This document shows, piece by piece, positions 1 to 27,457 of a DNA stretch of 64,000 nucleotides. Made by a program: the position numbers and the translations under genes. How positions within the stretch are numbered: position 1 is the stretch's first letter; each line of letters opens with the position of its first letter. The DNA lies in contig OZ243973.1 of assembly GCA_965214725.1 (NCBI GenBank), positions 1,468,079 through 1,532,078 of the forward strand. Direction: 5' to 3'. Below the pieces are notes generated by a model that searched no databases, had not been told where the DNA came from, and was given only the letters and a program-made list of their open reading frames with translations. This DNA comes from Dehalococcoidia bacterium (lineage in GTDB: Bacteria; Chloroflexota; Dehalococcoidia; UBA6926).

Positions 1-3000
1 CAGAGGGCGATGAGACGTTCGCGGTCACGCTAGCCTCGCCCACCAACGCCACGCTCGGTTCAACGACGACGGGCATCGGCACCATCACGGATGATGATGA
101 GGCGCCCACGACGGCGAGCCTGTCGGTCAGTCCGAGCAACGTGGGCGAGGAGGATGGCGCAACCACCGTCACCGTCACGGCCACGCTAGCGGGCAGCGTC
201 ACCTTTGATGCCGACACGACAGTCACGGTCAAGGTAGGCAAGGATGGCGACGCGGCCGAGTCTGACACGGACTACACAGGAGTCTCCGCCTTCGACATCA
301 CCATCACGGCGGGCCATTTGAGCGGGCAGCAGACGTTCACCCTCACGCCCACGAACGACACCCTCGACGAGCCCAATGAATCCATCACCATCCACGCGAC
401 CGCAACGGGCCTCTCCATCTCTGACGCAAGCGTCACCATCACGGATGACGATGCGGCGCCGACGGTCACCATCGCCAACACATCGGTCGCGGAAGGTGAC
501 AAGGCAGAGTTCACCGTGACGCTGTCGGCTGCCTCAGGCCGGGATGTGACAGTCCAATGGACAACGGGTGACGACGGCGCAGAGAACGCCAACCAGGCAA
601 CGGCGGACACTGACTACACCGCAGTGACGACGCCACAGACTCTGACCATCAAGAAGGGCAGCGCCACCGGCACCTTTGAGGTACAGACAACCCAGGACAC
701 CATCGCAGAGGGCGATGAGACGTTCGCGGTCACGCTAGGCTCGCCCACCAACGCCACGCTTTCCACCGTGGAGGGCGCGACCGAGGCCACCGGCACCATC
801 ACGGATGATGACACCGCGCCCAAGACGGCGACGCTGACCGTCAGCCCAAGCAGCGTGGGAGAGGGCGCCGGCGCGACGAAGGTCACCGTGACCGTCACGC
901 TCGATGACACGACGCATACCGTGCCGGACACATCAAAAGACCCGCCAGCGACGAAGGATGTCGACAAGGCCACCACGTTCAACGAAGACACGACGGTCAC
1001 GGTCAAGATCGGCAAGAGCGACGACACGGCCAAGTCGGGCGAGGACTACACCGGCGTCAGTGATGTCGCTATCACTATCTTGGCGGGCCAGTTGAGCGGA
1101 CAAGGGACGTTCTCGCTAGCGCCAATCCAAGACACCCGCGACGAGCCCAATGAGTCGCTCACCGTCCACGCGACGGCGACGGACCTTACCATCTCTGATG
1201 CGACAGTGAGCATCACGGATGATGATGACGCGCCGACGGTGACCATCGGCAACGCATCAGTCGCGGAAGGTGACAAGGCAGAGTTTACCGTGACGCTGTC
1301 GGCGGCCTCTGGCCGGGACGTCACGGTTGAGTGGACAACGGGCGACGACACCTCGGACGGCGCCAACCAGGCCACAGCCGATACCGACTACACGGCCCAA
1401 ACCACCGTCACAACCCTCACCATCGCCACTGGTGACACCACTGGAACCATTGAAGTACAGACCACAGAGGACACCCTCGCCGAGGGTGCCGAGACCTTCG
1501 CGGTCACAATCGCCGAGCCCACCAACGCCACGCTCGGCACGCCCAAGACCGCCACCGGCACCATCACGGACGATGACACCGCGCCCAAGACGGCGAGTCT
1601 GTCCGTCAGTCCGAGCAACGTGGGCGAGGAGGATGGCGCAACCACCGTCACCGTCACGGCCACGCTAGCGGGCAGCGTCACCTTTGATGCTGACAAGACG
1701 GTCAGGGTGACAGTCGGCAAGGACGGCGATACCGCAGTCTCAGACACGGATTACACCGGTGTCTCCGCCTTCGACATCACCATCACGGCGGGCCGATCGA
1801 GTGGTCAGCAGACGTTCTCGCTAGCGCCAATCCAGGACACCCGCGACGAGCCCAATGAATCGATCACCATCCACGCGACGGCAACAGGCCTCGCGATATC
1901 TGACGCTAGTGTCACCATCACGGATGACGATGCGGCGCCGACGGTTACCATCGCCAACGCATCAGTCGCGGAAGGTGGCAAGGCAGAGTTCACCGTGACG
2001 CTGTCGGCTGCCTCTGGCCGGGATGTGACAGTCCAGTGGACAACGGGTGATGACGGTTCCCAGGACGCCAACCAAGCCACCGCGAATGAGGACTACACCG
2101 CCCAAACCACCGCCGCGAAGCTCACCATTGCCGCTGGATCCGCCACCGGAACCATTGAAGTGCAGACAACCGAGGACACCCTCGTTGAGGGTAGTGAGAC
2201 CTTCGCGGTCACAATCGCCTCACCCAGCAACGCCACCCTCGGCGCAACGACGACGGGCATCGGCACCATCACGGACGATGATGAGGCGCCAACGACTGCG
2301 ACGCTGACCGTCAGCCCGAGCAGCGTCGGAGAAGAGGACAGCGCAACGACGGTCACAGTGACCGCCACCTTGGCTGGTAGCGTCACCTTTGATGCCGACA
2401 CGACGGTCACCGTCAAGATCGGCAAGGACGGCGACGCGGCCGAGTCGGGCGAGGACTACACCGGCGTCAATGACCTCACTATCACTATCTCAGCGGGAGA
2501 GTTGAGCGGTCAGCAGACGTTCTCGCTCGCACCGATTCAAGACACCCTCGACGAGCCCAATGAGTCGCTCACCATCCACGCGACGGCCACGGGCCTCACC
2601 ATCTCTGACGCAAGCGTCACCATCACGGACGACGATGCCCTGCCGGAGCTCACCATCGCGAACGCATCAGTCACCGAGGGCGGCAAGGCACAATTCACAG
2701 TCACGCTGACCCCAGTCTCAGGCCGTGACGTAACAGTCCAGTGGACAACGGGCGATGATGGCGCAGAGAACGCCAACCAGGCCACCGCAGACACCGATTA
2801 CACCGCCCAAACCACCGCCGCACCGCTCACCATCAAGGCTGGTACCAGGGCCGCCACCATTCAGGTGCAGACCACAGAGGACACCATCCACGAGGGCGAC
2901 GAGACGTTCACCGTCACGCTAGCCTCCCCCGAGAACGCCACGCTCGGCACGCCCAAGACCGCCACCGGCACCATCACGGATGATGACACCGCGCCCCAGA

Positions 3001-6000
3001 CGGCGACGCTGTCAGTCAGTCCGAGCAGCGTAACTGAGAACGCCGGTGCAACGACGGTCACCGTCACGGCCACACTGACGGGCAGCGTCACCTTTGATGC
3101 CGACACGGCGGTCAGGGTGACAGTCGGCAAGGACGGCGATACCGCCATCTCAGATACGGATTACACGGGAGTCTCCGCCTTCGATCTGACCATCTCGGCG
3201 GGCCAGTTGAGCGGTCAGCAGACGTTCTCGCTAGCGCCAATCCAGGACACCCGCGACGAGCCCAATGAATCGATCACCATCCACGCGACGGCAACGGCCC
3301 TCACCATCTCTGACGCGACAGTCACCATCACGGATGACGATGCCGCGCCGACGGTGTCCGTGTCCAACGCGACGGCCGTGACGGAGGGCGACGACCCGAA
3401 CGCCACGACAGACATGACGTTCACCGTGACACTCTCGGCGGCGAGTTCGCGGGAGATCACGGTCGACTATACGCTCGGTGGCACGGCGACGGCAGACAAG
3501 GACTACACGGATCCGGCAACCAAGACGATTGCCATTGCGGTGGGCGAAGAGACGGGCGAAATCGTCATCCCCGTGGTCGGCGACGTGGTAGATGAGCCGA
3601 ACGAGACCGTTACGGTCACAATCGCCTCCGCCACCAACGCCACGCCTTCCAGTGTGGAGGGCGAGACTGAGGCGACGGGCACCATCACGGACGACGATGA
3701 CACGCCCAAGACGGCGACGCTGTCCGTCAGCCCGAGCAGCGTCGGAGAAGAGGACAGCGCAACGACGGTCACGGTGACCGCCACCTTGGCTGGCAGCGTC
3801 ACCTTCGCCGCCGATACGACCGTCAGGGTGACAGTCGGCAAGGACGGCGACACGGCCAAGTCGGGCGAGGACTACTCCCAAGTCAGCAACGTCACGATCA
3901 CTATCTCAGCAGGAGAGTCGAGCGGGCAGAAGACATTCACCCTCACGCCAACGGACGACGAGCATGACGAGAACGATGAGTCGCTCACTGTCCACGCGAC
4001 GGCGACGGACCTTACCATCTCTGACGCTGAAGTAACCATCACAGACGACGATGCTGCGCCGACTGTCAGCATCGCGGATGCATCAGTCGCGGAAGGTGAC
4101 AAGGCGGAGTTCACGGTCACGCTGTCGGCGGCCTCGGGCCGTGACGTAACAGTCCAATGGACAACGGGCGACGATGCCACGGCGAACGCCAACCAAGCGA
4201 CCGCGGACACTGACTACACCGCGCAGACCACCGCCGCAACCGTCACCATCGCCGCCGGATCCGTCACCGGAACCATTGAAGTACAGACAACCGAGGACAC
4301 CATCGCAGAGGGCGATGAGACGTTCGCGGTCACGCTAGCCTCCCCCGAGAGCGCCACGCTCGGCGCAACGACGACGGGCATCGGCACCATCACGGACGAT
4401 GACACCGCACCAACGACGGCATCGCTGTCGGTCCGTCCCACGTCGGTGGCCGAAGGCGCGAGCGCGACTACAGTCACGGTGACCGCCACGCTCGCCGGCT
4501 CCACAACCTTCGCCGCCGATACGACGGTGACGGTCAAAGTAGGCAAGGACGGCGACACGGCCGAATCGGGGACGGACTACTCCCAGGTCAGCAACGTCAC
4601 GATCACTATCACAGCGGGCCGGTCGAGTGGTCAGCAGACGTTCTCGCTCGCGCCGATTCAGGACACCCTCGATGAGCCCAATGAGTCCTTGACCGTCCAC
4701 GCGACGGCGACGGACCTTACCATCTCTGATGCAAGCGTCACCATCACGGATGACGATGCGGAGCCGACGGTGTCAATCGCGAACGCCACTGCCGTGAAGG
4801 AGGGCAACGATCCCAACGCCGCCACGAACATGACCTTCGACGTTACGCTCTCGGCGGCCAGCGGTCGGGACATCACGGTCAACTACACGCTCGGCGGGAC
4901 GGCCACGGCGGGCAGCGACTACAAGGAGCCCGCGCCGAAGACGGTCAGCATCGCGGCCGGCGCCACGTCGGGCAGCATCATCATCCCCGTGATCGGCGAC
5001 GTGGTGGACGAGCCGAACGAGACGGTCATCGTCACGCTGTCGAACCCCAGCAACACCACGCTCGGCTCGCCATCGACTGCCACCGGCACGATCACCGACG
5101 ATGACGAGCCGCCGACCACCGGTACCATTGAGATTGAGTTGGAGCACCAGGTGGACCCCGAGGCGGATCTGGTGGTCGCCGAGAACGTGGAAACCGCGCC
5201 GACCTTCACCTTCGTGATGGAGCTCGATGGAACGACGTTCAGCGCCGACAAGACGGTCACCGTGAAGGTGGGCAAGAGTGACGATCCGGCCATTTCGGGC
5301 ACCGATTACACCGCCATCGAGGACTTCACGATCACGCTGACGGCCGGCAAGAGCAGCGCGAGCGGCACGTTTACGCTCGACCCGATTGACGACACGCTGG
5401 ACGAGATTGACGAGACGCTGACGGTGTATGCGGAGATTGACGGCGTCGAGATGGCGTCGTCCACTGTGACCATCACCGACGACGATGAACCACCGACGGT
5501 GTCGGTCAGTGATGCGGCTGCGGTGACAGAGGGCGACGATCCCAGCGCCGCCACGAACATGACCTTTAAGGTAGCCCTCTCGACGGAGAGCGGGCGGGAT
5601 ATCAGCGTCGACTACACGCTCGGCGGCACCGCCACGGCGGACGCAGACTACACCGATCCGGCAACCAAGACGATCACCATCGCGGCAGGCGCGGACTCTG
5701 CCAACATCGTCATCCCCGTTCTCGGCGACGTGGTGGATGAGCCGAACGAGACCGTCACCGTCACGCTAACCTCCGCCACCAACGTCACGCTTTCCAAGAC
5801 GGCAGGCGCGACCGAGGCCACCGGCACCATCACGGATGATGACACCGCGCCCCAGACGGCGACGCTGTCAGTCAGCCCCACGTCGGTCGCCGAGAACGCT
5901 GGTGCGACTACAGTCACGGTGACTGCCACGCTAGCGGGCAGCGTCACCTTTGATGCCGATACGACAGTCACGGTCAAGGTAGGCAAGGATGGTGACACGG

Positions 6001-9000
6001 CCGAGTCGGGCGAGGACTACACCGGCGTCAATGACGTCACTATCACTATCTCAGCGGGAGAGTCGAGCGGGGAAAAGACGTTCTCACTCGCACCGATTCA
6101 AGACACCCTCGATGAGCCTAATGAGTCCTTGACCGTCCACGCCACGGCGACAGGCCTCACGATATCTGACGCGACAGTGAGCATCACGGATGATGATGCG
6201 GAGCCGACTGTCACCATTGGAGATGCGTCCGTGACTGAGGGCGGCAAGGCGGAGTTCACCGTGACGCTGTCGGCGGCCTCTGGCCGGGACGTGACAGTCC
6301 AATGGACGACCGGCGACGACGGTTCGCAGGGCGCCAACCAGGCCACCGCGAACACTGACTACACAGCGGTGACAACGGCCACAACTCTGACCATCGACGC
6401 TGGTGACACGACCGGCGCCATCGAGGTGCAGACGACCGAGGACACCCTCGTTGAGGGTAGTGAGACGTTCGCGGTCACAATCGCCGCGCCCACCAACGCC
6501 ACGCTCGGCTCGACGACGACTGCCACAGGCACCATCACGGATGATGACACCGCGCCAACGACGGCGTCCCTGTCCGTCAGTCCCACGGCGGTCGCCGAAG
6601 GCGCGGGCGCAACGACAGTCACCGTCACGGCCACACTGACGGGCAGCGTCACCTTTGATGCCGACACGACAGTCACGGTCAAGGTAGGCAAGGACGGCGA
6701 CGCGGCCAAGTCGGGCGAGGACTACACCGGCGTCAATGACGTCACTATCACTATCTCAGCGGGAGAGTCGAGCGGTCAGCAGACGTTCTCGCTCGCACCA
6801 ATCCAGGACACCCGCGACGAGCCCAATGAATCGATCACCATCCACGCGACGGCAACGGCCCTCACCATCTCTGACGCGACAGTCACCATCACGGATGACG
6901 ATGCCGCGCCGACGGTGTCCGTGTCCAACGCGACGGCCGTGACGGAGGGCGACGACCCGAACGCCACGACAGACATGACGTTCACCGTGACACTCTCGGC
7001 GGCGAGTTCGCGGGAGATCACGGTCGACTATACGCTCGGTGGCACGGCGACGGCAGACAAGGACTACACGGATCCGGCAACCAAGACGATTGCCATTGCG
7101 GTGGGCGAAGAGACGGGCGAAATCGTCATCCCCGTGGTCGGCGACGTGGTAGATGAGCCGAACGAGACCGTTACGGTCACAATCGCCTCCGCCACCAACG
7201 CCACGCCTTCCAGTGTGGAGGGCGAGACTGAGGCGACGGGCACCATCACGGACGACGATGACACGCCCAAGACGGCGACGCTGTCCGTCAGCCCGAGCAG
7301 CGTCGGAGAAGAGGACAGCGCAACGACGGTCACGGTGACCGCCACCTTGGCTGGCAGCGTCACCTTTGATGCTGACACGACAGTCACGGTCAAGGTCGGC
7401 AAGGATGGCGACGCGGCCGAGTCCGGCAAGGACTACTCCCAGGTCAGCAACGTCACGATCACTATCACAGCGGGCCGGTCGAGTGGTCAGCAGACGTTCT
7501 CACTCGCACCGATTCAGGACACCCTCGATGAGCCCAGCGAGTCGCTCACGGTCCACGCCACGGCAGCAGGCCTCGCGATATCTGACGCAAGCGTCACCAT
7601 CACCGACGACGATGCTGCGCCGACTGTCGCCATTGGAGATGTGTCCGTGACTGAGGGCGGCAAGGCCGAGTTCACCGTGACGTTGTCGGCGGCCTCAGGC
7701 CGGAACGTAACAGTCGAATGGACAACGGGTGATGATGGCGCTGAGGGCGCGACTCAGGCCACGGCTGATACCGATTACACGGCGATGACTAGTGCCGCAA
7801 CACTCACCATCGCCGCCGGATCCGCCACCGGTACCATCCAGGTGCAGACGACTGAAGACACCCTCGTCGAGGGTAGTGAGACCTTCGCGGTCACAATCGC
7901 CTCGCCCACTAACGCCACGCTCGGCTCACCGACGACGGCCATCGGCACCATCACGGATGATGACACTGCACCAGAGACCGCATCTCTATCTGTAAGCCCA
8001 ACTTCGGTCGCCGAGGGCGCAGGCGCGACAACGGTCACTGTCACCGCCACGCTCGACGGCACAACAACGTTCAATGCTGACACGACGGTCAAGGTGACAG
8101 TAGGCGAGGACGGCGACACGGCCGTCTCAGACACGGATTACACCGGTGTCTCCGCCTTCGACATCACCATCACGGCAGGCCAGTTGAGCGGAAAGAATAC
8201 GTTCTCGCTAACGCCAACGAATGACACCCGCGACGAGCCCAACGAGTCGCTCACGGTCCACGCCACGGCAACAGGCCTCACCATCTCTGACGCAAGCGTC
8301 ACCATCACCGACGACGATGCGGCGCCGACGGTCACCATCGCGGACGCATCAGTCGCGGAAGGTGACAAGGCAGAGTTCACCGTGACGCTGTCGGCGGCCT
8401 CTGGCCGGGACGTGACGGTCCGATGGACAACGGGTGACGATGCCACCGATGGCGCGAATCAGGCGACCGCGGACACTGACTACACAGCGGTGACGGCGGC
8501 GCAGACTCTGACCATCGCCGCTGGATCCGCCACCGGCAGCATCGAGGTGCAGACGACCGATGACACCATCGTTGAGGTTAGTGAAACGTTCGCTGTCACA
8601 ATCGCCGCGCCCACCAACGCCACCCTCGGCGCAACGACGACGGGCATCGGCACCATCACGGACGATGACACCGCGCCCACGACGGCGAGCCTGTCTGTAA
8701 GCCCGAGCAACGTGGGCGAGGAGGATGGCGCAACGAATATCACCGTCACGGCCACCCTGGCGGGCTCGGTGACTTTCGCCACCGATACGACGGTCACCGT
8801 CAAGGTAGGCAAGGATGGTGACACGGCCGAATCCGGTAAGGACTACACCCAAGTCAGCGACGTCACGATCACCATCACGGCGGGCCAGTTGAGCGGGCAG
8901 CAGACGTTCTCGCTCGCACCGATTCAAGACAACATCGATGAGCCTAATGAGTCCTTGACCGTCCACGCCACGGCGGCGAATCTCACCATCTCTGATGCAA

Positions 9001-12000
9001 GCGTCACCATCACGGATGACGATCCCACGCCGACGGTGTCAATCGCGAACGCCACCGCCGTGAAGGAGGGCAACGATTCCAGCGCCGCCACGAACATGAC
9101 CTTCAACGTCACGCTCTCGGCGGCCAGCGGGCGGGAAATCAGCGTCGACTACACGCTCGGCGGCACCGCCACGGCGGGCAGCGACTACAAGGAGCCCGCG
9201 CCGAAGACGGTCACCATCGCGGCCGGCGCCACGTCGAGCAGCATCGTCATCCCCGTGATCGGCGACGTGGTGGACGAGCCGAACGAGACGGTCACTGTCA
9301 CGCTGTCGAATCCCAGCAACACCACGCTCGGCTCGCCATTGACTGCCACCGGAACGATCACGGACGATGACGAGGCGCCGACCACCGGTACCATTGAGAT
9401 TGAGTTGGAGCACCAGGTGGACCCCGAGGCGGATCTGGTGGTCGCTGAGAACGTGGAAACCGCGCCGACCTTCACCTTCGTGATGGAGCTCGATGGAACG
9501 ACGTTCAGCGCCGACAAGACGGTCACCGTGAAGGTGAGCAAGAGCGATGACCCCGCCATTTCGGGCACCGACTACACTGCCATCGAGGACTTCACCATCA
9601 CGCTCAAGGCCGGCAAGAGCAGCGCGAGCGGGACGTTCACGCTCGACCCGATCGACGACACGCTGGACGAGATTGACGAGACGCTGACGGTGTATGCGGA
9701 GATTGACGGTGTGGAGATGGCGTCGTCCACTGTGACCATCACCGACGACGATGAACCACCGACGGTGTCCGTGTCAGACGCGACGGCCGTGGCGGAGGGC
9801 GACGACCCGAACGCCACGACGGACATGATATTTAAGGTAGCCCTCTCGACGGAGAGCGGGCGAGATATCACCGTCGGCTACACGCTTGGCGGCACGGCTA
9901 CGGCGGACGCGGACTACACCGATCCGGTAACCAAGACCATCACCATCGCGGCGGGCGCGGACTCTGGCAACATCGTCATCCCGGTGTTGGGTGACCTGGT
10001 AGATGAGCCGAACGAGACCGTCACGGTCACGCTAACCTCCGCCACCAACGCCACGCTTTCCAAGACGGCAAGCGCGACCGAGGCCACCGGCACCATCACG
10101 GACGACGATGATACGCCGACGGCGGCGACGCTGACGGTGGACCCGGTGAGCGTGGGCGAGGGCGCCGGCGCGACGAAGGTCACCGTGACCGTCACGCTCG
10201 ATGACACGACGCATACCGTGCCGGACACATCAAAAGACCCGCCAGCGACGAAGGATGTCGACAAGGCCACCACGTTCAACGAGGACACAACTGTCACGGT
10301 GACGGTAGGCAAGGATGGCGACACGGCCGAGTCTGACGAAGACTATGACGGGGTCAGTGATGTCAGCATCACCATAGCGGCGGGAGAGTCGAGCGGCGAG
10401 GGAGAATTCACCCTCACGCCAACGAACGACACACTCGACGAGCCCAATGAATCGATCACCATCCACGCGACGGCAACAGGCCTCGCGATATCTGATGCAA
10501 GCGTCACCATCACGGATGACGATGCCCCGCCGACGGTTACCATCGCCAACGCATCAGTCGCGGAAGGTGACAAGGCAGAGTTCACGGTCACACTGTCGGC
10601 GGCCTCTGGCCGGGATGTGACAGTTGAGTGGACAACGGGCGACGATGCCACCGATGGCGCGAATCAGGCGACGGCTGATACCGATTACACGGCCCAAACC
10701 ACCGCCACAACTCTGACCATCGACGCTGGTGGCACCACAGGCGCCATCGAGGTTCAGACGACCGAGGACACCCTTGTCGAGGGTAGTGAGACCTTCACAG
10801 TGACAATCGCCGCGCCCACTAACGCCACGCTCGGCGCAACGACGACCACCACCGGCACCATCACGGACGATGACACCGCGCCAGAGACCGCATCTCTATC
10901 TGTAAGCCCCACCTCGGTGGCCGAGGGCGCTGGTGCGACTACAGTCACGGTCACGGCCACCCTCGCGGGCAGCGTCACCTTTGATGCTGACACGACGGTC
11001 AGGGTGACAGTCGGCAAGGGCGGCGACACGGCCGTCTCAGACACGGATTACACGGGAGTCTCCGCCTTCGACATCACCATCACGGCGGGCCAATTGAGCG
11101 GTCAGCAGGCGTTCTCGCTCGCACCGATTCAAGACACCCTCGATGAGCCCAACGAGTCGCTCACTGTCCATGCGATGGCGGCGGACCTGACCATCTCTGA
11201 CGCAAGCGTCACCATCACGGATGACGATGCGGCGCCGACGGTCACCATCGCCAACGCATCAGTCGCGGAAGGTGACAAGGCAGAGTTCACGGTCACGCTG
11301 TCGGCGGCCTCGGGCCGGGATGTGACGGTTGAGTGGACGACCGGCGACGATGCCACCGATGGCGCGAATCAGGCGACGGCGGATACCGATTACACGGCCC
11401 AAACCACCGCCACAACTCTGACCATCGACGCCGGTGACACGACCGGCGCCATCGAGGTGCAGACAACCGAGGACAGCATCGTTGAGGGTGCTGAGACCTT
11501 CACGGTGACAATCACCGCGCCCAGCAACGCCACGCTCGGCGCAACGACGACGGCCACGGGCACCATCACGGATGATGATGAGGCGCCCACGACGGCGAGC
11601 CTTTCGGTCAGTCCCACGTCGGTCGCCGAGGGCGCCGGTGCGACTACAGTCACGGTGACCGCCACGCTGTCCGGCTCCACGACGTTCAATACCGCCAAGA
11701 CGGTCACCGTCAAGATCGGGAAGTCGGGCGATACGGCCGAATCGGGGACGGACTACACCCAAGTCAGCGACGTCACGATCACTATTTCGGCGGGCCAGTT
11801 GAGCGGTCAGCAGACGTTCTCGCTAACGCCATTTGATGACACCCTCGACGAGCCCATTGAATCGATCACCATCCACGCGACGGCAACAGGCCTCGCGATC
11901 TCTGACGCTAGTGTCACCATCACGGATGACGATGCGGCGCCGACGGTTACCATCGCCAACGCATCAGTCGCGGAAGGTGACAAGGCAGAGTTCACCGTGA

Positions 12001-15000
12001 CGCTGTCGGCGGCCTCTGGCCGGAACGTAACAGTTGAGTGGACAACGGGTGATGATGGCACCGATGGCGCCAAACAGGCCACGGCCAATACCGACTACAC
12101 GGCCCAAACCACCGCCACGACTCTCACCATCGACGCTGGTGACACCACCGGAACCATTGAAGTACAGACGACTGAAGACACCATCGTTGAGGGTGCCGAG
12201 ACCTTCGCGGTCACAATCGCCTCGCCCACCAACGCCACGCTCGGCGCAACGACGACGGCCACCGGCACCATCACGGATGATGACACCGCGCCAACTACGG
12301 CGTCCCTGTCCGTCAGCCCAACGTCGGTCGCTGAGGGCGCAGGTGCGACTACAGTCACCGTCACGGCCACACTGACGGGCAGCGTCACCTTTGATGCCGA
12401 CACGGCGGTCAGGGTGACAGTCGGCAAGGACGGCGATACCGCAGTCTCGGACACGGATTACACGGCAGTCTCCGCCTTCGACATCACCATCACGGCGGGC
12501 CAGTTGAGCGGTCAGCAGACGTTCTCGCTGACGCCAACGAATGACACCCGCGACGAGCCTAATGAGTCCTTGACCGTCCACGCGACGGCCACGGGCCTCG
12601 CGATATCTGATGCAAGCGTCACCATCACAGATGACGATGCGGCGCCGACGGTCACCATCGCCAACTCATCAGTCGCGGAGGGTGACAAGGCAGAGTTCAC
12701 GGTGACGCTGTCGGCGGCCTCGGGCCGGGACGTAACAGTCCAATGGACAACGGGCGACGATGGCGCTGAGGGCGCGACTCAGGCGACGGCCGATACCGAC
12801 TACACGGCCCAAACCACCGCCACAACTCTGACCATCGACGCTGGTGACACCACCGGCGCCATCGAAGTGCAGACGACCGAGGACACCATCGTTGAGGGTG
12901 CTGAGACCTTCGCGGTCACAATCGCCTCGCCCACCAACGCCACGCTCGGCGCAACGACGACGGCCACCGGCACCATCACGGATGATGACACCGCGGCAAC
13001 GACGGCATCGCTGTCGGTCAGTCCCACGTCGGTGGCCGAGGGCGCAGGCGCAACCACCATCACTGTCACCGCCACGCTCGCCGGCTCGACAACGTTCAAC
13101 GCCGACACGACGGTCAGAGTAACCGTGGGCAAGGACGGCGATGCCGCCGTCTCAGACACGGATTACACCGGTGTCTCCGCCTTCGATCTGACCATCTCGG
13201 CGGGCCAGCTGAGTGGGGAAAAGACGTTCACCCTCACGCCAACGAATGACACCCGCGACGAGCCCAATGAATCGCTCACGGTCCACGCCACGGCAACGGG
13301 CCTCACCATCTCTGATGCAAGCGTCACCATCACCGACGACGATGCGGTGCCGACGGTTACCATCGCGGACGCGTCCGCCGCGGAAGGTGAAAAGGCAGAG
13401 TTCACCGTGACACTTTCGGCGGCCTCGGGCCGGGACGTCACGGTTGAGTGGACAACGGGAGACGATGGTTCGCAGGGCGCCAGCCAAGCGACCGCGGACA
13501 CTGACTACACAGCGGTGACGACCGCCACAACTCTGACCATCGACGCTGGTGACACGACCGGCGCCATCGAGGTGCAGACGACCGAGGACACCCTTGTTGA
13601 GGGTAGTGAGACCTTCGCGGTGACAATCGCCGCGCCCAGCAACGCCACGCTCGGCTCACCGACGACCGCCACCGGCACCATCACGGATGATGACAGCGCA
13701 GCAACGACGGCATCGCTGTCCGTCAGCCCGACGTCGGTCGCCGAGGGCGCAGGCGCAACCACCATCACTGTCACGGCCACGCTCGCCGGCTCCACGACGT
13801 TCAATGCGGACACGACGGTCAGAGTAACCGTGGGCAAGGACGGCGATACCGCAGTCTCAGACACGGATTACACGGGAGTCTCCGCCTTCGATCTGACCAT
13901 CACGGCGGGCCGGTCGAGTGGTCAGCAGACGTTCTCACTCGCACCGACTCAGGACACCCTCGATGAGCCCAACGAGTCGCTCACGGTCCACGCCACGGCA
14001 ACAGGCCTCACCATCTCTGACGCAAGCGTCACCATCACGGACGACGATGCTGCGCCGACTGTCACCATCGCGGACGCATCAGTCGCGGAGGGTGACAAGG
14101 CGGAGTTCACGGTCACGCTGTCGGCGGCCTCAGGCCGGGACGTGACGGTCCAATGGACGACCGGCGACGATGCCACCGATGGCGCGAATCAGGCGACGGC
14201 CGATACAGACTATACGGCCCAAACCACCGCCACAACCCTCACCATCGACGCCGGATCCTCCACCGGAACCATTGAAGTGCAGACAACCGAGGACACCCTC
14301 GTTGAGGGTAGTGAGACGTTCGCGGTCACAATCGCCTCGCCCACCAACGCCACGCTCGGCGCAACGACGACGGCCACCGGCACGATCACGGACGATGACA
14401 CCCCGCCCACGACGGCGTCCCTGTCCGTCAGCCCGACGTCGGTGGCCGAAGGCGCGAGCGCGACAACAGTCACAGTGACCGCCACGCTCACCGGCTCCAC
14501 GACGTTCAATGCGGACACGACGGTTAGGGTAACGGTGGGCAAGGACGGCGATACCGCAGTCTCAGACACGGATTACACGGGAGTCTCCGCCTTCGATCTG
14601 ACCATCACGGCGGGCCGGTCGAGTGGTCAGCAGACGTTCTCGCTCGCACCGATTCAGGACACCCTCGATGAGGACGACGAGAAACTCACCGTCCACGCGA
14701 CGGCGGCGGGCCTCGCGATATCTGATGCAAGCGTCACCATCACCGACGACGATGCCGCGCCGACGGTCACCATCGCCAACGTATCAGTCGCGGAAGGCGA
14801 CAAGGCAGAGTTCACGGTCACACTGTCGGCGGCCTCGGGCCGGGACGTAGCAGTCCAATGGACAACGGGCGACGATGCCACCGATGGCGCGAATCAGGCC
14901 ACGGCCAATACCGACTACACGGCGGTGACCACTGCCGCAACCCTCACGATTGCCGCTGGTGACACCACCGGCGCCATCGAAGTGCAGACCACAGAAGACA

Positions 15001-18000
15001 GCATCGTCGAGGATAGTGAGACCTTCGCGGTCACAATCGCCTCGCCCAGCAACGCCACCCTAGGCGCACCGACGACGGGCATCGGCACCATCACGGACGA
15101 TGACACCGCGCCCACGACGGCATCGCTGTCGGTCAGCCCCACCTCGGTCGCTGAGGGCGCCGGTGCAACGACAGTCACTGTCACGGCCACACTGACGGGC
15201 AGCGTCACCTTTGATGCAGACACGACAGTCAGGGTAACGGTCGGCAAGGACGGTGACACGGCCACCTCAGACAGGGATTACACAGGAGTGGCTGCTTTTG
15301 ACTTGACCATCACGGCGGGCCGATCGAGTGGGCAGCAGACGTTCTCGCTAGCGCCAACACAGGACACCATCGATGAACCTAATGAGTCCTTGACCGTCCA
15401 CGCCACAGCGACCGGCCTCACCATATCTGACGCGACAGTGAGTATCACGGATGACGATGCGGCGCCGACGGTCACCATCGCGGACGCATCGGTCGCGGAG
15501 GGTGACAAGGCGGAATTCACGGTCACACTGTCGGCGGCCTCAGGCCGGGACGTGACGGTCCAATGGACGACCGGCGACGATGCCACCGATGGCGCGAATC
15601 AGGCGACGGCTGATACCGATTACACGGCCCAAACCACCGCCACAACTCTGACCATCGACGCTGGTGACACGACCGGCACGATAGAGGTGCAGACCACAGA
15701 AGACACCCTCGTTGAGGGTAGTGAGACCTTCGCGGTCACAATCGCCTCCCCCAGCAACGCCACGCTCGGCTCACCGACGACAGCCACCGGCACCATCACG
15801 GATGATGACAGCGCGGCAACGACGGCGTCGCTGTCGGTCAGTCCCACGTCGGTCGCTGAGGGCGCGGGCGCAACCACCATCACTGTCACGGCCACGCTCG
15901 CCGGCTCCACAACGTTCAACGCCGATACGACAGTCAGGGTGACGGTGGGCAAGGACGGCGATACCGCCATCCCAGATACGGATTACACCGGTGTCTCCGC
16001 CTTCGATCTGACCATCACGGCGGGCCAGTTGAGCGGGCAGCAGACGTTTTCGCTCGCACCGATTCAGGACACCCTCGACGAGCCCAATGAGTCCTTGACC
16101 GTCCACGCGACCGCAACGGGCCTCTCCATCTCTGATGCAAGCGTCACCATCACGGACGACGATGCCACGCCGACGGTTACCATCGGCAACGCATCAGTCG
16201 CGGAAGGTGACAAGGCGGAGTTCACGGTCACGCTCTCGGCGGCCTCAGGCCGGGACGTGACGGTTGAGTGGACAACGGGCGACGATGGCGCTGAGGGCGC
16301 GACTCAGGCGACGGCTGATACCGATTACACGGCCCAAACCACCGCCACAACTCTGACCATCGACGCTGGTGACACGACCGGCGCGATAGAGGTGCAGACC
16401 ACAGAAGACACCCTCGCCGAGGGTGCCGAGACCTTCGCGGTCACAATCGCCGAGCCCACCAACGCCACGCTCGGCGCAACGACGACCGCCATCGGCACCA
16501 TCACGGACGATGACACCGCACCGACGACGGCGTCCCTGTCCGTCAGCCCCACGTCGGTGGCCGAGGGCGCGGGTGCAACGACAGTCACTGTCACGGCCAC
16601 ACTGACGGGCAGCGTCACCTTTGATGCTGACACGACGGTCACGGTCAAGGTAGGCAAGGACGGGGACGCGGCCAAGTCGGGCGAGGACTACACCGCGGTC
16701 AGCGACGTCACGATCACCATCACAGCGGGAGAGTCGAGCGGGCAGCAGACGTTCTCACTAACGCCATTTGATGACACCCTCGACGAGCCCAACGAGTCGC
16801 TCACCGTCCACGCGACGGCAACGGCCCTCACGATATCTGACGCTAGTGTCACCATCACGGATGACGATGCTGCGCCGACTGTCACCATCGCGGACGCATC
16901 AGTCGTGGAAGGTGGCAAGGCAGAGTTCACCGTGACGCTGTCGGCGGCCTCAGGCCGGGACGTCGCGGTTGAGTGGACGACAGGCGACGATGGGTCGCAG
17001 GGCGCCAACCAGGCCACGGCGGATACCGACTACACAGCGGTGACAACCGCCGCGACGCTCACCATTGCCGCGGGTGACTCCACCGGCACGATAGAGGTGC
17101 AGACCACAGAAGACACCATCGTTGAGGGTAGTGAGACCTTCGCGGTCACAATCGCCTCGCCTACCAACGCCACGCCCGGCTCAACGACGACAGCCATCGG
17201 CACCATCACGGATGATGACACCGCGCCCGCGACGGCGTCCCTGTCCGTCAGTCCCACGTCGGTGGCTGAGGGCGCGGGCGCGACAACAGTGACGGTGACG
17301 GCCACGCTTGACGGCTCCACAACGTTCAATGCCGACACGACGGTCAGAGTAACCGTGGGCAAGGACGGCGACACCGCCATCTCAGACACGGATTACACAG
17401 GCGTCTCCGCCTTCGACATCACTATCTCGGCGGGGCAGTTGAGCGGTCAGCAGACCTTCTCACTAACGCCATTTGATGACACCCTTGACGAGCCCAATGA
17501 ATCGCTCACGGTCCACGCGACGGCGACGGACCTCACCATATCTGACGCGACAGTGAGCATCACGGATGACGATGCGGCGCCGACGGTTACCATCGCCAAC
17601 GCATCAGTCGCGGAGGGTGACAAGGCAGAATTCACGGTCACGCTGTCGGCGGCCTCTGGCCGGGATGTGACAGTCCAGTGGACGACCGGCGACGATGCCA
17701 CCGATGGCGCGACTCAGGCGACGGCCGATACCGACTACACCGCCCACACCACCGCCGCGACGCTCACCATTGTCGCTGGTGACACCACAGGCGCCATCGA
17801 GGTGCAGACAACCGAGGACACCCTCGTTGAGGGTAGTGAGACCTTCGCGGTCACAATCGCCTCGCCCACCAACGCCACCCTCGGCGCAACGACGACAGCC
17901 ATCGGCACCATCACGGATGATGACACCGCGCCCAAGACGGCGACGCTGTCAGTCAACCCCACGTCGGTCGCCGAAGGCGCTGGCGCAACCACCATCACCG

Positions 18001-21000
18001 TCACGGCCACGCTCGCCGGCTCCACAAGGTTCAATACCGACACGACGGTCAGGGTAACGGTCGGCAAGGACGGCGACACCGCCATCTCAGACACGGATTA
18101 CACGGCAGTCTCCGCCTTCGATCTGACCATCTCGGCGGGCCAGTTGAGCGGGCAGCAGACGTTCTCGCTCGCACCGATTCAAGACACCCTCGACGAGCCC
18201 AATGAATCGATCACCATCCACGCGACGGCAACAGGCCTCGCGATATCTGATGCAAGCGTCACCATCACCGACGATGATGCCGCGCCGACTGTCACCATCG
18301 CGGACGCATCAGTCGCGGAAGGTGACAAGGCAGAGTTCACGGTCACGCTGTCGGCGGCCTCGGGCCGGAACATAACAGTCCGATGGACAACGGGTGACGA
18401 TGCCACCGATGGCGCGAATCAGGCGACGGCCGATACCGATTACACGGCCCAAACCACCGCCGCGAAGCTCACCATTGCCGCTGGATCCGCCACCGGCACC
18501 ATCGAGGTGCAGACCACAGAAGACAGCATCGTCGAGGGTAGTGAGACCTTCGCGGTCACAATCGCCTCGCCCAGCAACGCCACCCTAGGCGCACCGACGA
18601 CGGGCATCGGCACCATCACGGATGATGACAGCGCGCCCACGACGGCGTCCCTGTCCGTCAGTCCCACGTCGGTCGCCGAGGGCGCCGGCGCAACCACCAT
18701 CACCGTCACGGCCACCTTGGCGGGCAACGTCACCTTTGATGCTGACACGACGGTCAGGGTAACGGTGGGCAAGGACGGCGATACCGCAGTCTCAGACACG
18801 GATTACACGGGAGTCTCCGCCTTCGATCTGACCATCACGGCGGGCCGGTCGAGTGGTCAGCAGACGTTCTCGCTCGCGCCGATTCAGGACACCCTCGATG
18901 AGCCTAATGAGTCCTTGACCGTCCACGCGACGGCAACGGACCTTACCATCTCTGATGCGACAGTGAGCATCACGGATGATGATGACGCGCCGACGGTGAC
19001 CATCGGCAACGCATCAGTCGCGGAAGGTGACAAGGCAGAGTTTACCGTGACGCTGTCGGCGGCCTCAGGCCGGGACGTGACGGTCCAGTGGACGACCGGC
19101 GACGACGGTTCGCAGGGCGCAAACCAGGCGACGACCGATACCGACTACACGGCACAGACCACTGCCATAACCCTCACCATCGACGCTGGTGACACGACCG
19201 GCGCCATCGAAGTGCAGACAACCGAGGACACCCTCGTTGAGGGTAGTGAGACCTTCGCGGTCACAATCGCCTCGCCTACCAACGCCACGCTCGGCTCACC
19301 GACGACAGCCACCGGCACCATCACGGATGATGACACCGCGCCCAAGACGGCGACGCTGACCGTCAACCCGAGCAGCGTAGGTGAAGAGGACGGCGCGACA
19401 ACAGTCACGGTGACCGCCACGCTTGACGGCTCCACCACGTTCAATGCGGACACGACGGTCAGGGTAACGGTGGGCAAGGACGGCGACGCCGCCATCTCAG
19501 CCACGGATTACACAGGCGTCTCTGCCTTCGATCTGACCATCTCGGCGGGCCAGCTGAGTGGGGAAAAGACGTTCACCCTCACGCCAACGAATGACACCCG
19601 CGACGAGCCCAATGAATCGCTCACGGTCCACGCCACGGCAACGGGCCTCACCATCTCTGATGCAAGCGTCACCATCACGGATGACGATGCCCCGCCGACG
19701 GTTACCATCGGCAACGCATCAGTCGCGGAAGGTGGCAAGGCAGAGTTCACCGTGACGCTGTCGGCGGCCTCTGGCCGGGACGTGACAGTTGAGTGGACAA
19801 CAGGCGACGATGCCACCGATGGCGCGAATCAGGCGACGGCGGATACCGATTACACGGCCCAAGCCACCGCCACAACTCTGACCATCGACGCTGGTGACAC
19901 GACCGGCGCCATCGAGGTGCAGACGACCGAGGACACCCTTGTTGAGGGTAGTGAGACCTTCGCGGTCACAATCGCCTCACCCAGCAACGCCACGCTCGGC
20001 TCACCGACTACTGCCACAGGCACCATCACGGATGATGACACTGCCGCAACGACGGCATCGCTGTCGGTCAGTCCCACGTCGGTCGCTGAGGGCGCGGGCG
20101 CGACAACAGTGACGGTGACCGCCACACTCGCCGGCTCCACGACGTTCAATGCGGACACGACGGTCAGAGTAACCGTGGGCAAGGACGGCGATACCGCGGT
20201 CTCAGACACGGATTACACGGGAGTCTCCGCCTTCGATCTGACCATCTCGGCAGGCCAGTTGAGCGGACAGAAGACGCTCTCGCTCGCACCGATTCAAGAC
20301 ACCCTCGACGAGCCCAACGAGTCGCTCACGGTCCACGCGACGGCAACAGGCCTCGCCATATCTGACGCTAGTGTCACCATCACGGACGACGATGCTGCGC
20401 CGACGGTCACCATCGCGGACGCATCAGTCGCGGAGGGTGACAAGGCGGAATTCACGGTCACGCTGTCGGCGGCCTCTGGCCGGGACGTGACGGTTGAGTG
20501 GACGACCGGCGACGATGGTTCGCAGGGCGCCAACCAAGCGACCGCAGACACTGACTACACAGCGGTGACAACGGCCACAACTCTGACCATCGACGCTGGT
20601 GACACGACCGGCGCCATCGAGGTACAGACGATCGAGGACACCATCTACGAGGGTGACGAGACGTTCGCGGTCACAATCGCGTCCCCCACCAACGCGACGC
20701 TCGGCTCACCGACGACTGCCACTGGCACCATCACGGACGATGAGACCGCGGCTGCGGCGGCATCCCTGTCCGTCAGCCCCACATCAGTGGCTGAGGGCGC
20801 GGGCGCAACCACCGTCACGGTTACGGCCACGCTAGCCGGCTCCACAACGTTCAATACCGCCACGGCGGTCACCGTCAAGATCGGGAAGTCGGGTGATACG
20901 GCCGAATCGGGGACGGACTACACCCAAGTCAGCGACGTTACGATCACTATCTCGGCAGGCCAGTCGAGCGGACAGAATACCTTCTCGCTCGCACCAATTC

Positions 21001-22150
21001 AGGACACCCTCGACGAGCCTAACGAGTCGCTCACTGTCCACGCGACGGCAACGGACCTCAACATCTCTGACGCAAGCGTCACCATCACGGATGACGACGC
21101 GTCGCCGACTGTCACCATTGCGAACGCATCAGTCGCGGAAGGTGACAAGGCGGAGTTCACGGTCGCACTGTCGGCGGCTTCTGGCCGGGACGTGACGGTT
21201 GAGTGGACAACGGGCGACGATGGCGCTGAGGGCGCGACTCAGGCGACGGCTGATACCGATTACACGGCCCAAACCACCGCCACAACTCTGACCATCGCCG
21301 CTGGTGACACCACCGGCACCATTGAGGTACAGACAACCGAGGACACCCTTGTCGAGGGTAGTGAGACCTTCACGGTGACAATCGCCTCGCCCACCAACGC
21401 CACGCTCGGCGCGACGACGGCAACCGGCACCATCACGGATGATGACAGCGCAGCAACGACGGCATCGCTGTCCGTCAGCCCGACGTCGGTGGCCGAAGGC
21501 GCGAGCGCGACTACAGTCACGGTGACCGCCACGCTCGCCGGCTCCACAACGTTCAATACCGACACGACGGTCAGGGTAACGGTGGGCAAGGACGGCGACG
21601 CGGCCGTCTCAGACACGGATTACACAGGAGTCTCCGCCTTCGACATCACCATAGCCGCAGGCCAGTTGAACGGACAGAATACCTTCTCGCTCACGCCGCT
21701 CAATGACACCCTCGATGAGGACGATGAGTCGCTCACTGTCCATGCGACGGCGACGGGCCTCACCATATCTGACGCGACAGTGAGCATCACGGATGACGAT
21801 CCCACGCCGACGGCGTCCGTTGCCGACGCCACATCCGTGATCGAGGGAGATAGCGCCCAGGACGTCACAGATATGACCTTCATGGTGACCCTGAGCGCTG
21901 TGAGCAGCAAGAGCATCACCATCTCCTATGTACTTGGCGGGACGGCAACGGCGGGCAGCGACTACACAGCTCCGGATCCGCTCTCCGTCACCATTCCTGC
22001 CGGAGAGCAACAGCAAAGCATCATCATTCCAGTCCTCGGTGACACAATCGTTGAAGGAGACGAAACGGTTACCGTGACGCTGAATACCCCCACCACGCGG
22101 GTGCGGACTCGGCAGACCCCGGCATCCACGCAGGCATCCGGGACGATTGA
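1..22150 (+). repeat. Coding tandem repeat array. Units alternate between two Calx-beta subtypes with a period of about 705-710 nt per pair. There are sporadic insertions of two other subtypes. Some multi-hundred-nucleotide blocks are near-identical.
   Basis: The motif SLSVSP(S/T)...TITDDD recurs in frame at about 2300, 3010, 3720, 4430, 5870, 6570, 7270, 7990, 8690, then about every 705 nt from 10870 to 21460. The block around 3230-3815 is near-identical to 6790-7375. The blocks around 5100-5500 and 9370-9770 are near-identical to each other. Confidence 0.85.
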
Positions 22151-24776
22151 GGACGACGACAGGCGGCAACCGCAGGGTAGTATATCGTCGTCACTGGTGC
22201 TGAGCCCTGCCACCATCTCCGAGGGCGGTGGAGACAGAGGCGCAAGTTACATCACGGCACGATTGGACAAGGCTGTAAGCACTGACGTCACATTCACCGT
22301 CTTTACCACTCCGTTGACCGACACAACCACCGCGGACTACAGAGTCAGCACAAATCAGGTTCTGACCATCGAGGCAGGAGACCTTGAGAGCAAGGACTTC
22401 GTCACCATCAGCGCCGTCGACAACAGTCAGGTTGACGGGGACAAGACAGTGCAGGTCTCGGCGACCGTGACAGGGAGCACGGAGGTCCGGGTCCCCGATC
22501 CTGAAGATCTGAGCATCGTCGATGATGACTTGACGGGAACGCCGGACGCGACTGTCGCTTTCGAGCATTTGACCTACAGTCTCGACGAGGACGGCAAGTT
22601 GAATATCTCGGTTGACTTGAGCGTTGCGCTTCAATCAGCGGCAGAGGTGCACTACCTCCTGCACGCGTCCAACTCCGTTGTCGGCAGGGATGGCGACATC
22701 ATCACCCGGTCTGACGGCCCAGATGGATGGGTCAGCACCGGAGAGCTCATCTTTGCGGCCGGAGACACCCAGCGGATAATCAGCGTCCTCCCAGTCGACA
22801 ACAATGTCGTGGAACCGGACGAAGAGATCTCCATATCGCTTCTCGTCGTGAGTGGGCAGGTGGAGGCAGGCTCTCCAACCACGGTGACGCTCACAGATGA
22901 TGATCGGAGCGTTCTCTACGTAGAGCCGTCGTTCGATGAAGTGGAAGAAGGTGAGCAAAGCGGGTTCCGCCTGCGCATGAACAAGCCCCATCAAGAGGAC
23001 GTGACCGTTGACCTCATCGTGAGTGGAACCGCTGAGGAGGGTGACGATTTCGACGCCCTACCTGCGACACTGACCTTCCCGGCAGGCGAGAGAACTATCG
23101 GTGTCACGGTCACGACCTTTGAGGACGGGATTGCAGAAGGCATGGAGACCCTCATCGTCGATCTCAGCAACGTCGTTGGCCACCACGTTGCCATCGACCA
23201 ATCATCCGGTCAGTTCAACCTCCGGATGAGCGATACGCGCGACGTCAGCCCACCCACTAACGTGAGGCTCAGCGTTAGCCCCTCACGCGTGGTGGAGGAC
23301 GCCGGCGCGACAACGCTCACAGTGACGGCCGACTTTGTGGGTAATGGAACCTTCACGACGAATACGTCTGTGGTCGTTACCGTCGGCGCGACGGGCGACA
23401 CGGCAGTTGCAGGCACCGATTACGCAAATGTTGGCACGGTTACCGTTCCCATCACGGCGCAGCAGAGCAGCGGTCAGGCGACGTTCACACTAACGCTGAC
23501 GGATGATGCTGACGTGGAGGGACTGGAAACGATTACCCTGCATGGCACAGCAAGCGGCCTCACCGTCTCGGATACGACGTTGACCATCGTGGACGATGAC
23601 TCACCCACACCACCGCCGCCACCAACGGTGACACCAACGCCGACGCCAACGGTGACACCAACGCCCACGCCGACGCCGACACCAACGGCAACTCCGACAC
23701 CGACGCCCACCGCTGTGTCACTCAGCGTTAGCCCGGCGCGCGTGCCGGAGGACGCTGGCGCCACGACAATCACGGTCACGGCAGACTTCGTCGGCTCAGG
23801 AACCTTCAACACGGATACGTCTGTAACCGTGACAATCGGGCAGGGGAGTGATGCGGCGGTCTCAGGGACCGACTACACGTCTGACGGCACGGTCACCGTG
23901 ACATTCTCGGCGGGGCAGAGCAGCGGCCAGGCCTCGTTCACGCTCACGCCAACGGACGATGTCGAAGTGGAAGGATCGGAGTCGCTCACGCTGCACGGCT
24001 CGGCAAGCGGCCTAACCGTTTCTGACACGACGGTGACCATCACCGATGACGATAAACGGATTGTCGTTGCCAGCTTGGCGCTCGCGAGCTTTGGACGTTC
24101 CTCATACAAGCTGAATGAAGACGATTCACCGGTTGAGATTACCGTGGAGCTGAGCAGCGAGCAGACCGCAGATGTGGAGATCACATACTCGATGTCTTCA
24201 GCGACGGCGGACATTGGACGCAAGGGTGATGCGTGGTCGATAGGTGGTGAAGATGGGGATTGGCGCGATGATCAGCGTCTCATCTTTGCTCCGGGTGAGA
24301 CAGAGAAGATCATCAAGGTTTACCCGGTGGACAACAATGTGGTTGAGCCGGACGAGATGGTGACCATCTCGCTGAGCGTGGCCGATGGAAATGCAACCGC
24401 AGGGCGGTCCACAGAGCTCACCCTCCTCGACGACGATCTCACAACAGTCATGCTGGAGCCTGTCGCGTCGCAGGCCAACGAGGGCGAGAGAACGGAAATC
24501 GAGCTGATGCTTAGCAAGCCACACCAGGATGAGGTCACGATGGACTGCTCCGTGCGCGGCACAGCCACATCCGGCGACGACTACGCGTACCTACCCCACA
24601 CTGTGGTGATCCCCGCCGGCAGCACCTCCGTTACCATCCCCGTGGATCTGCTGAGCGACGAGATTGCGGAAGGACCCGAGACCCTCGTCTTCATCATTTC
24701 TAACCCGGACGGCCGCGGGGTCGACATCTCCAGCGACCACTCTGAGCACACGATCACGATTGTTGATGGGGAGTGA
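1..24776 (+). CDS. Giant Calx-beta repeat protein. It is 5'-partial: the reading frame is open from window position 3, so the true start lies upstream of the window. At least 8,258 aa are encoded here. It ends in a TGA at 24774-24776.
   Basis: Frame 3 is open from nt 3 and reads [19 protein letters not shown]... before the first Met at 141. The protein consists of about 70 tandem domains of roughly 110 aa. Each carries the Calx-beta hallmarks: ...[32 protein letters not shown]...DYTA...[32 protein letters not shown]...TGTITDDD. Two subtypes alternate. A Pro-Thr linker and divergent Calx-beta-like modules follow near the C-terminus. Confidence 0.9.
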
Positions 24777-27453: not shown

Positions 27454-27457
27454 CCAT

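Follow-up and report, generated by a model that had tools for sequence, protein, structure and literature searches.

Probable recent short-patch gene conversion within a giant Calx-beta repeat gene of a Dehalococcoidia bacterium

The repeats of bacterial surface proteins evolve in concert through gene conversion and unequal crossing-over, as in Rib/alpha-C, SasG/Aap, Ebh and region II of MpIBP. Here we describe a giant gene of tandem Calx-beta domains in a Dehalococcoidia bacterium (phylum Chloroflexota; GenBank assembly GCA_965214725.1). It lies at the left edge of a stretch of 64,000 nucleotides (nt) from contig OZ243973.1 (positions 1,468,079 to 1,532,078 of the forward strand), which we refer to as the window. 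Its product resembles the surface proteins above in being a predicted very large extracellular series of beta-sandwiches, and its coding sequence resembles theirs in having limited tracts of very low synonymous divergence (dS) on a diverged background. Whereas classical arrays are near-identical throughout and vary in copy number, this array is old (dS ~0.55) and carries one dispersed patch of 569 identical nt. We conclude that the patch was probably created by recent short-patch gene conversion over an older higher-order repeat.

Several other systems invite comparison. For the giant surface proteins of Apilactobacillus kunkeei, recombination tracts in the genes were inferred between strains, and that study found no recent conversion between paralogous giant genes (PMC12863079); the exchange proposed here is instead between repeats inside one gene. 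Intragenic homogenisation of repeats has been reported for spidroin genes (PMC3933166, PMC3563967) and megasatellites for the adhesin genes of Candida glabrata (PMC2566889). These systems share with our locus long coding repeats (hundreds of nt), giant genes for structure or adhesion, intragenic recombination and difficult assembly. However, they are eukaryotic and mostly homogenised throughout, whereas at least two domain types alternate strictly here and homogenisation is local. Calx-beta domains are also reported to be enriched, among "eukaryotic-like" proteins, in sponge-symbiotic Acidimicrobiia/Actinobacteriota (PMC11706023). That study is limited to domain counts, with no description of giant arrays or internal repeats. 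The nearest relatives of our gene occur in metagenome-assembled genomes (MAGs) of Acidimicrobiia and Dehalococcoidia and in SB06xx-series bins.

The open reading frame (ORF) listed for the gene spans 141-24776 (8211 aa). Frame 3 can be read from nt 3 onwards, where it already encodes repeat sequence, and remains intact over 8257 codons. The gene therefore begins outside the window, beyond its left edge, and must exceed 8257 codons. The GTG at 141 is the start of the listed ORF and not the true start, and the true N-terminus, with any signal or anchor, lies outside the window. A repeat finder returned ~31 units with a period of 705 nt and mutual identities of 60-88%. Cut at its recurrent xxDDD motif, the protein yields 69 segments, and the gene comprises ~62 array Calx-beta domains, six divergent C-terminal domains and a Pro/Thr linker (~23601-23715).

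Array domains were assigned to types A (118 aa, SLSVSP...), B (117 aa, [18 protein letters not shown]...WTTGDD), a (138 aa, an A type plus a 20-aa insert; n = 2), C (116-120 aa; n = 7, comprising sub-forms C1, C2 and C3 and one C-terminal copy) and D (127 aa; n = 2, A-like in its C-terminal two thirds). Types alternate strictly, with A, a or D in the first slot and B or C in the second. The full string is x-ABaBABAB-ACABACDC-AB-ACABABACDC-aB-(AB)15-AC, followed by the six divergent Calx-beta-like domains and the linker. A previous reading of the window, made from sequence alone, had named a third and a fourth repeat subtype; their motifs are present in C domains 10 and 20 and in D domains 15 and 27, respectively, but C occurs seven times rather than twice.

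An identical tract on a diverged background

The longest exact repeat in the gene, block A, is a match over 569 nt between two copies offset by 3561 nt, or 1187 codons (Table 1). The sequence-only reading had called the block at 3230-3815 almost identical to a second one downstream, and this proved correct: at the same offset the pair has 7 mismatches in 586 nt (98.8% identity). Its positions for the second copies of this pair and of the pair described below were located correctly to within a few bases, being 1 and 4 nt off. In a scan of all diagonals, block A reached 641 nt at 97.8% identity. No other exact repeat in the gene is longer than 155 nt.

The edges of the tract are sharp. Mismatches resume within a few bases on either side, and the flanks of copy 2 (6549-6797 and 7367-7613) are only ~76% identical to those of copy 1. 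We permuted the 118 mismatches of the A-C1-A triplet over its 1065 nt in 20,000 runs. The longest identical run averaged 45 nt and reached at most 120 nt, against the 569 nt observed, and an analytic bound for an exact run of this length in the triplet is ~1e-37.

We next quantified divergence with the Nei-Gojobori method, taking domain identities from codon-aware alignments. Block A has no differences in ~148 synonymous sites (dS = 0), and its nonsynonymous divergence (dN) is also 0, while its flanks have dS of 0.62 and 0.88 and dN of ~0.17. Because synonymous sites are homogenised as well, selection at the protein level cannot explain block A. The tract extends beyond the C1 domain at both ends, ignoring domain borders as a process acting on DNA predicts. 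Both copies are in frame and in the same domain register, five units apart, which argues for homologous replacement rather than insertion. The sequence between them (3806-6797) is not duplicated. Dispersed copies without duplication of the intervening DNA fit gene conversion and do not fit unequal crossing-over, which would duplicate 3.5 kb. Thus, three features expected of a gene-conversion tract were found: an over-long run of identity, homogenised synonymous sites and in-register replacement without intervening duplication.

On the opposite strand, an ORF of 216 aa (3231-3881) nearly coincides with copy 1 of block A. Similar antisense ORFs occur at 8349-8966, 11259-11762, 11964-12581 and 21609-22169, and we judged the one at block A to be a by-product of GC-rich repeat sequence.

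Table 1. Coordinates of the giant gene, its internal repeats and neighbouring genes in the window
Feature	Position	Strand	Content
Giant Calx-beta repeat gene	3..24776	+	5'-truncated at the left edge of the window; from ORF list, open frame, domain split, Pfam and AlphaFold/Foldseek
Domain a, first	813..1226	+	A type with 20-aa insert; pairs with 10110-10523
Super-unit 1	2988..5843	+	Domains 9-16, A-C1-A-B-A-C2-D-C3; from domain typing
Block A, copy 1	3237..3805	+	Last 105 nt of A-domain 9, all of C1-domain 10 (3342-3698), first 107 nt of A-domain 11
Block B, copy 1	4716..5512	+	End of A-domain 13, C2-domain 14 (4758-5105), D-domain 15 (5106-5486), start of C3-domain 16
Super-unit 2	6549..10109	+	Domains 19-28, A-C1-A-B-A-B-A-C2-D-C3; from domain typing
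Block A, copy 2	6798..7366	+	End of A-domain 19, C1-domain 20 (6903-7259), start of A-domain 21
Block B, copy 2	8982..9778	+	End of A-domain 25, C2-domain 26 (9024-9371), D-domain 27 (9372-9752), start of C3-domain 28
Domain a, second	10110..10523	+	Directly after super-unit 2
Regular array part	10524..21446	+	B and A strictly alternating, 705-nt period, ~84% mutual identity, many short shared patches
MMPL/RND-type transporter, LppX/LprAFG-like lipoprotein, MFS transporter	24982-29628	+	Directly after the giant gene
Large ORF, 1311 aa	33544-37479	+	One Calx-beta and one fibronectin type III domain; no NCBIfam name
SNF2-type helicase, 992 aa	42249-45227	-	Best matches BrxHI (311 bits) and DrmD (293-326 bits)

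A second pair, block B, is longer and older. It spans 797 nt at 94% identity and an offset of 4266 nt, with weaker similarity (~84-96%) around copy 1 from ~4550 to 5843. Its edges are graded, its dS is 0.157 and its dN is 0.034. The segment at 5100-5500 does recur as the sequence-only reading had claimed, with 17 mismatches in 401 nt (95.8% identity), but it is not near-identical base for base, as its longest exact run is 90 nt. Ranked by length, the high-identity blocks found on all diagonals were headed by blocks B and A, followed by one of 341 nt at 93.5%. The best 401-nt windows were 100% identical in block A, 96.3% in block B and 93.3% on the next diagonal, with a median per-diagonal maximum of 83%. 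Hence, the two blocks exceed all other repeat pairs, in agreement with the earlier claim. We relied on diagonal scans for this comparison; self-BLAST with identity filters had shown no pair above 87%, its high-scoring segment pairs having averaged identical blocks with their diverged flanks.

Both blocks belong to a larger pattern, in which the domain order A-C1-A-B-[A-B]-A-C2-D-C3 occurs twice, as super-units 1 and 2. The offsets of the blocks differ by 705 nt because super-unit 2 has one extra A-B unit. Corresponding domains of the two super-units differ widely in divergence: nucleotide identity is 100% for the C1 pair, 95.5% for D (dS 0.18), 92.8% for C2 (dS 0.13) and 88.0% for C3 (dS 0.35), while the intervening A and B pairs are 76-84% identical, with dS of 0.59-0.76, or up to 0.88 when the flanks of block A are counted. 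For comparison, background identity averages 77.7% among A domains (maximum 90.1%) and 83.4% among B domains (maximum 92.0%), and neighbouring units of the regular array have a mean dS of 0.555. There are thus three divergence classes, at dS 0, at 0.13-0.35 and at 0.6-0.9, the last being the array background. Within the middle class, strong purifying selection acts on the D domain (dN/dS ~0.06).

Three classes of dS on two diagonals mean that the super-units are not products of one uniform segmental duplication. The idea of a higher-order segmental duplication therefore holds for the domain order and not for a single recent duplicate. Likewise, the argument from DNA identity to recent duplication or conversion holds for block A, where it points to gene conversion and away from simple duplication, but block B is older. 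It is the rare domains, through their order and similarity, that carry the higher-order pattern. The closest relatives of the A domains in one super-unit are not those of the other, and the intervening A and B domains resemble one another no more than they resemble other units. Either other units overwrote the A domains of the super-units, or the rare modules moved independently.

The two a domains, one of which immediately follows super-unit 2, provide a third marker of the higher-order pattern through an exact repeat of their own. They are 81% identical overall, yet share an exact run of 125 nt at the 20-aa insert (861-985 = 10158-10282).

Exchange of patches is common in the array as a whole. 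A GENECONV-style test on 15 regular units (105 pairs) found an excess identical run in 31 pairs at p < 0.01, where ~1 would be expected, and 10 pairs passed Bonferroni correction. Exact runs of 100-155 nt join units that are otherwise ~84% identical. Of the patches left by this ongoing process, block A is the largest and the youngest.

Weighing explanations for the identical tract

The explanation we favour, as probable on the evidence of the sequence, is a non-reciprocal, RecA-dependent form of homologous recombination, as known between bacterial paralogues, here acting within one gene. The partners would be the two paralogous A-C1-A junction regions 3561 nt apart. Strand invasion would begin and end in A-type sequence common to all units, and ~570 nt including the whole C1 domain would be copied in frame over the other unit, wiping out the differences between them. 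Beneath this patch would lie an older layer in which the rare C2-D-C3 module and the upstream C1 unit were each already present twice. Block B, at dS ~0.16, may record either that older copying or the most recent conversion between the C2-D-C3 modules. Between the blocks, the ordinary A and B domains would have diverged to background or been overwritten from other units.

Some observations weigh against this account. Hints as to the donor are contradictory. In a nearest-neighbour analysis of the flanks, the left breakpoint points to copy 1, where an 83-nt exact match to 1803-1885 (domain 5) spans it, and the right flank points weakly to copy 2. Both breakpoints fall in sequence common to other units (exact matches of 83 nt and 29-30 nt), as expected of resolution sites, but such sequences are also branch points in an assembly graph. 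The exact tract, its edges, the divergence values and the domain order are read directly from the sequence; the recombination mechanism, its non-reciprocity, direction and recency, and the physical presence of the second copy are inferred.

Branch points at both edges raise the question of an artefact of assembly or polishing. One C1 unitig may have been threaded twice, or copies of ~97-99% identity merged into one consensus, and the number of units may be wrong. The sequence-only reading had warned of a hazard for short-read assembly, and the warning is reasonable. Short reads and most inserts would not span an exact repeat of 569 nt, and both breakpoints lie in k-mers common to other units. 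The source lineage is apparently uncultured, with relatives known only as MAGs; the contig of one related locus breaks off partway through its giant gene, and fragmentation of giant repeat genes in short-read assemblies has been noted (10.1101/2023.11.21.568195). However, polishing cannot turn sequences of ~76% identity into 569 identical bases with sharp edges, so the copies must already have been very similar. The contig crosses 31 units with an intact frame of 8257 codons, as accurate long reads would give, and this frame argues for good base-level accuracy. Similar blocks also occur in relatives on chromosome-scale contigs, including two separate contigs of one MAG. We therefore consider an artefact unlikely.

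A single recent duplication of a super-unit (~3.5-4.3 kb) by unequal crossing-over, since mostly overwritten, would leave blocks A and B as untouched remnants. The shared domain order of the super-units is in keeping with this, as is the frequency of conversion among A-B units, and the rare C and D domains, having few donors, would be the ones to survive unaltered. Yet these same donor-poor domains contradict it, as C2, D and C3 have dS of 0.13, 0.18 and 0.35 against 0 for C1, and no single event gives both. The two blocks do not share a diagonal (offsets 3561 and 4266), identity drops abruptly to 76% where the tract stops within A domains, and the A and B domains of the super-units are not mutual nearest relatives. 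What was found is not a contiguous segment of roughly uniform divergence, and we regard this origin as very unlikely.

Selection might also act on the DNA sequence itself, whether via an RNA embedded in it, an internal regulatory element or the antisense ORF that coincides so closely with copy 1. This has virtually no chance of being the cause, as positions 1-25000 contain no Rfam family, the tract folds no better than shuffled sequences (z = +0.39), and the ORF has no Pfam match, is not retained in copy 2 and has counterparts elsewhere in the GC-rich array.

The gene product and its genomic neighbourhood

Pfam detected only Calx-beta domains along the repeats. Against a gathering score of 27 bits for Calx-beta (PF03160), segments of 1001 and 1158 aa scored 146.8 and 164.1 bits, with six stretches each. 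As single domains, B (39.6 bits), C1 (31.1) and C2 (45.1) passed this cutoff, and A (21.6), a (20.9) and D (17.8) fell under it; for the latter three, Calx-beta was still the best or sole match and covered nearly the whole profile. We modelled an A-C1 unit with AlphaFold (AF2), using the window's own 30 units as the alignment. The model consisted of two all-beta domains (beta-sandwiches) with a predicted local distance difference test score of 95.1. Its top Foldseek matches in the PDB were the tandem calcium-binding domains (CBD12) of NCX1 and CALX (E 2e-12 to 4e-9), and single modelled domains aligned to CBD1 with template modelling scores (target) of 0.63-0.71 and root-mean-square deviations of 3.1-3.8 A. 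The family profile hidden Markov model (HMM) and the predicted NCX1/CALX-like fold thus both place the repeats in the Calx-beta family.

A sequence-level search of the PDB with the repeat unit gave no match, and identity to CBD1-CBD2 of NCX1/CALX is only ~18-26% despite the common fold and Pfam family. In the Na+/Ca2+ exchangers NCX1 and CALX, the CBDs belong to a cytoplasmic regulatory loop, whereas ours is a putative extracellular array of ~68 domains with predicted Ca2+ binding. Acidic columns invariant across 30 units (D116-D118, D235-D236 and D90-E91/E94) form DDD and DEPNE motifs at domain ends, and are compatible with Ca2+-binding junctions between domains. The protein may therefore be an extracellular stalk or adhesin of predicted Ca2+-binding beta-sandwich domains.

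In these respects it recalls the giant repeats-in-toxin (RTX) adhesins of type I secretion systems (T1SS), such as LapA, MpIBP and SiiE, which have a stalk of tandem beta-sandwiches and acidic inter-domain motifs suggesting rigidification by Ca2+. A B domain also gave a weak match to the Pfam LapA domain (34.5 bits). We rejected assignment to this class, since the C-terminal 1158 aa lack RTX repeats, matching only Calx-beta, DUF5006, YtkA and DUF4843, and no T1SS genes are among the downstream neighbours. The host also differs, being a member of Chloroflexota, and the N-terminal part lies outside the window.

Genes for an MMPL/RND-type transporter, a lipoprotein and an MFS transporter follow directly (Table 1), and the pairing of MMPL with LppX/LprAFG resembles lipid-export modules. 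Further downstream lie leuS, cysS, gatB, dnaG, rpoD and a membrane pyrophosphatase gene, which indicates that the locus is chromosomal. The large ORF 9 kb downstream of the giant gene has a similar positive AT skew, and its product is probably another surface protein. The SNF2-type helicase sits in a stretch (42-46 kb) with a GC content of 0.53, compared with ~0.61 elsewhere. Its DrmD scores fall under the NCBIfam cutoff of 610, and none of the four neighbouring ORFs tested has a PADLOC match, so that the window shows no recognisable complete BREX or DISARM system.

Relatives and the evolution of the gene family

We sought sequences from the same species and found none, the closest being 58% identical in protein sequence for the gene and 86% for LeuS. 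An exact look-up of the neighbouring MMPL protein returned no record, and a DNA pattern built from block A with tolerance at wobble positions had no matches in metagenome contigs. Best matches were 58% for a scan of genome contigs with the C2-D-C3 module, 39% for a protein database search with the C-terminal region and 42% for a protein-based metagenome scan. LeuS is 86%, 83% and 82% identical to its closest relatives and ~70% identical to proteins of Dehalococcoidia/Chloroflexota MAGs, which points to a species of Chloroflexota not sampled before.

More distant relatives are informative. Giant genes at loci L001-L005, in Acidimicrobiia and Dehalococcoidia MAGs, are 51-58% identical to the C2-D-C3 module, and some contigs bearing related giant genes are chromosome-scale. 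At 31-41%, the module also matches bins of the SB06xx series, which PMC7883664 lists with sponge-associated Entoporibacteria. HMMs built from the window's domain types detected the same domain vocabulary in the relatives. An Acidimicrobiia MAG carries a (C-A)n array (L001, OZ246890.1) with two C-D-C modules 9978 nt apart (1451-2521 and 11429-12499). Along this diagonal, identity is 95-100% around the modules and ~75% beside them, and the two D domains have identical protein sequences. Its A, C and D domains are 57-64% identical in protein sequence to those of the window despite belonging to a different phylum, which could reflect horizontal sharing between co-occurring symbionts or a binning error. 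Special conservation of D across phyla found no support, as D is 57% identical to its L001 counterpart, compared with means of 58% for A-A and 60% for C-C and 59-64% for the flanking C2/C3 pairs.

Another Acidimicrobiia MAG has two such genes, L002 (OZ219922.1) and L003 (OZ219923.1), on separate contigs ("chromosomes"). Each contains ~2.8 kb at >= 99% identity at an offset of eight units. The two are 98.8% identical over 16.3 kb, and L003 stops at a contig end within the gene. They could be a true duplicate, co-binned strains or the outcome of an assembly break at the repeat. An apparent difference of one domain between them was rejected, since alignment gives equal length. As such blocks occur in L001 and in L002/L003, the latter in two independently assembled contigs, intragenic blocks of high identity at multi-unit distances are a recurrent and probably real property of the gene family.

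A bolder interpretation, which we think quite unlikely, is that the rare C1 and C2-D-C3 modules are functional landmarks on a stalk, such as ligand-binding stations, kept alike by recurrent or selected conversion. It draws on the A/C/D vocabulary shared with the L001 MAG, whose C-D-C modules are locally 95-100% identical, and on the low dN/dS of D (~0.06). If it were true, the genes would be a horizontally shared family of symbiont surface proteins in which patchwork recombination makes or keeps surface variants, and even mimicry of a sponge host's Calx-beta aggregation factors would be conceivable.

For users of the assembly, the 569-nt perfect repeat and the many repeats of 100-155 nt mean that the number and order of units between 3.2 and 7.4 kb need caution before domain counts are interpreted. 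Short-patch gene conversion, the explanation we favour for block A, is an ordinary mode of evolution for repeat genes and entails no new mechanism, here in a previously unsampled gene of Chloroflexota. What is specific is the combination of an old, diverged two-slot array, rare domains that mark a higher-order repeat, and a single young patch with sharp bounds. The locus would thus offer a clean and dated case in which an old array (dS ~0.55) has its protein similarity kept by selection, while short conversion patches re-homogenise it locally.

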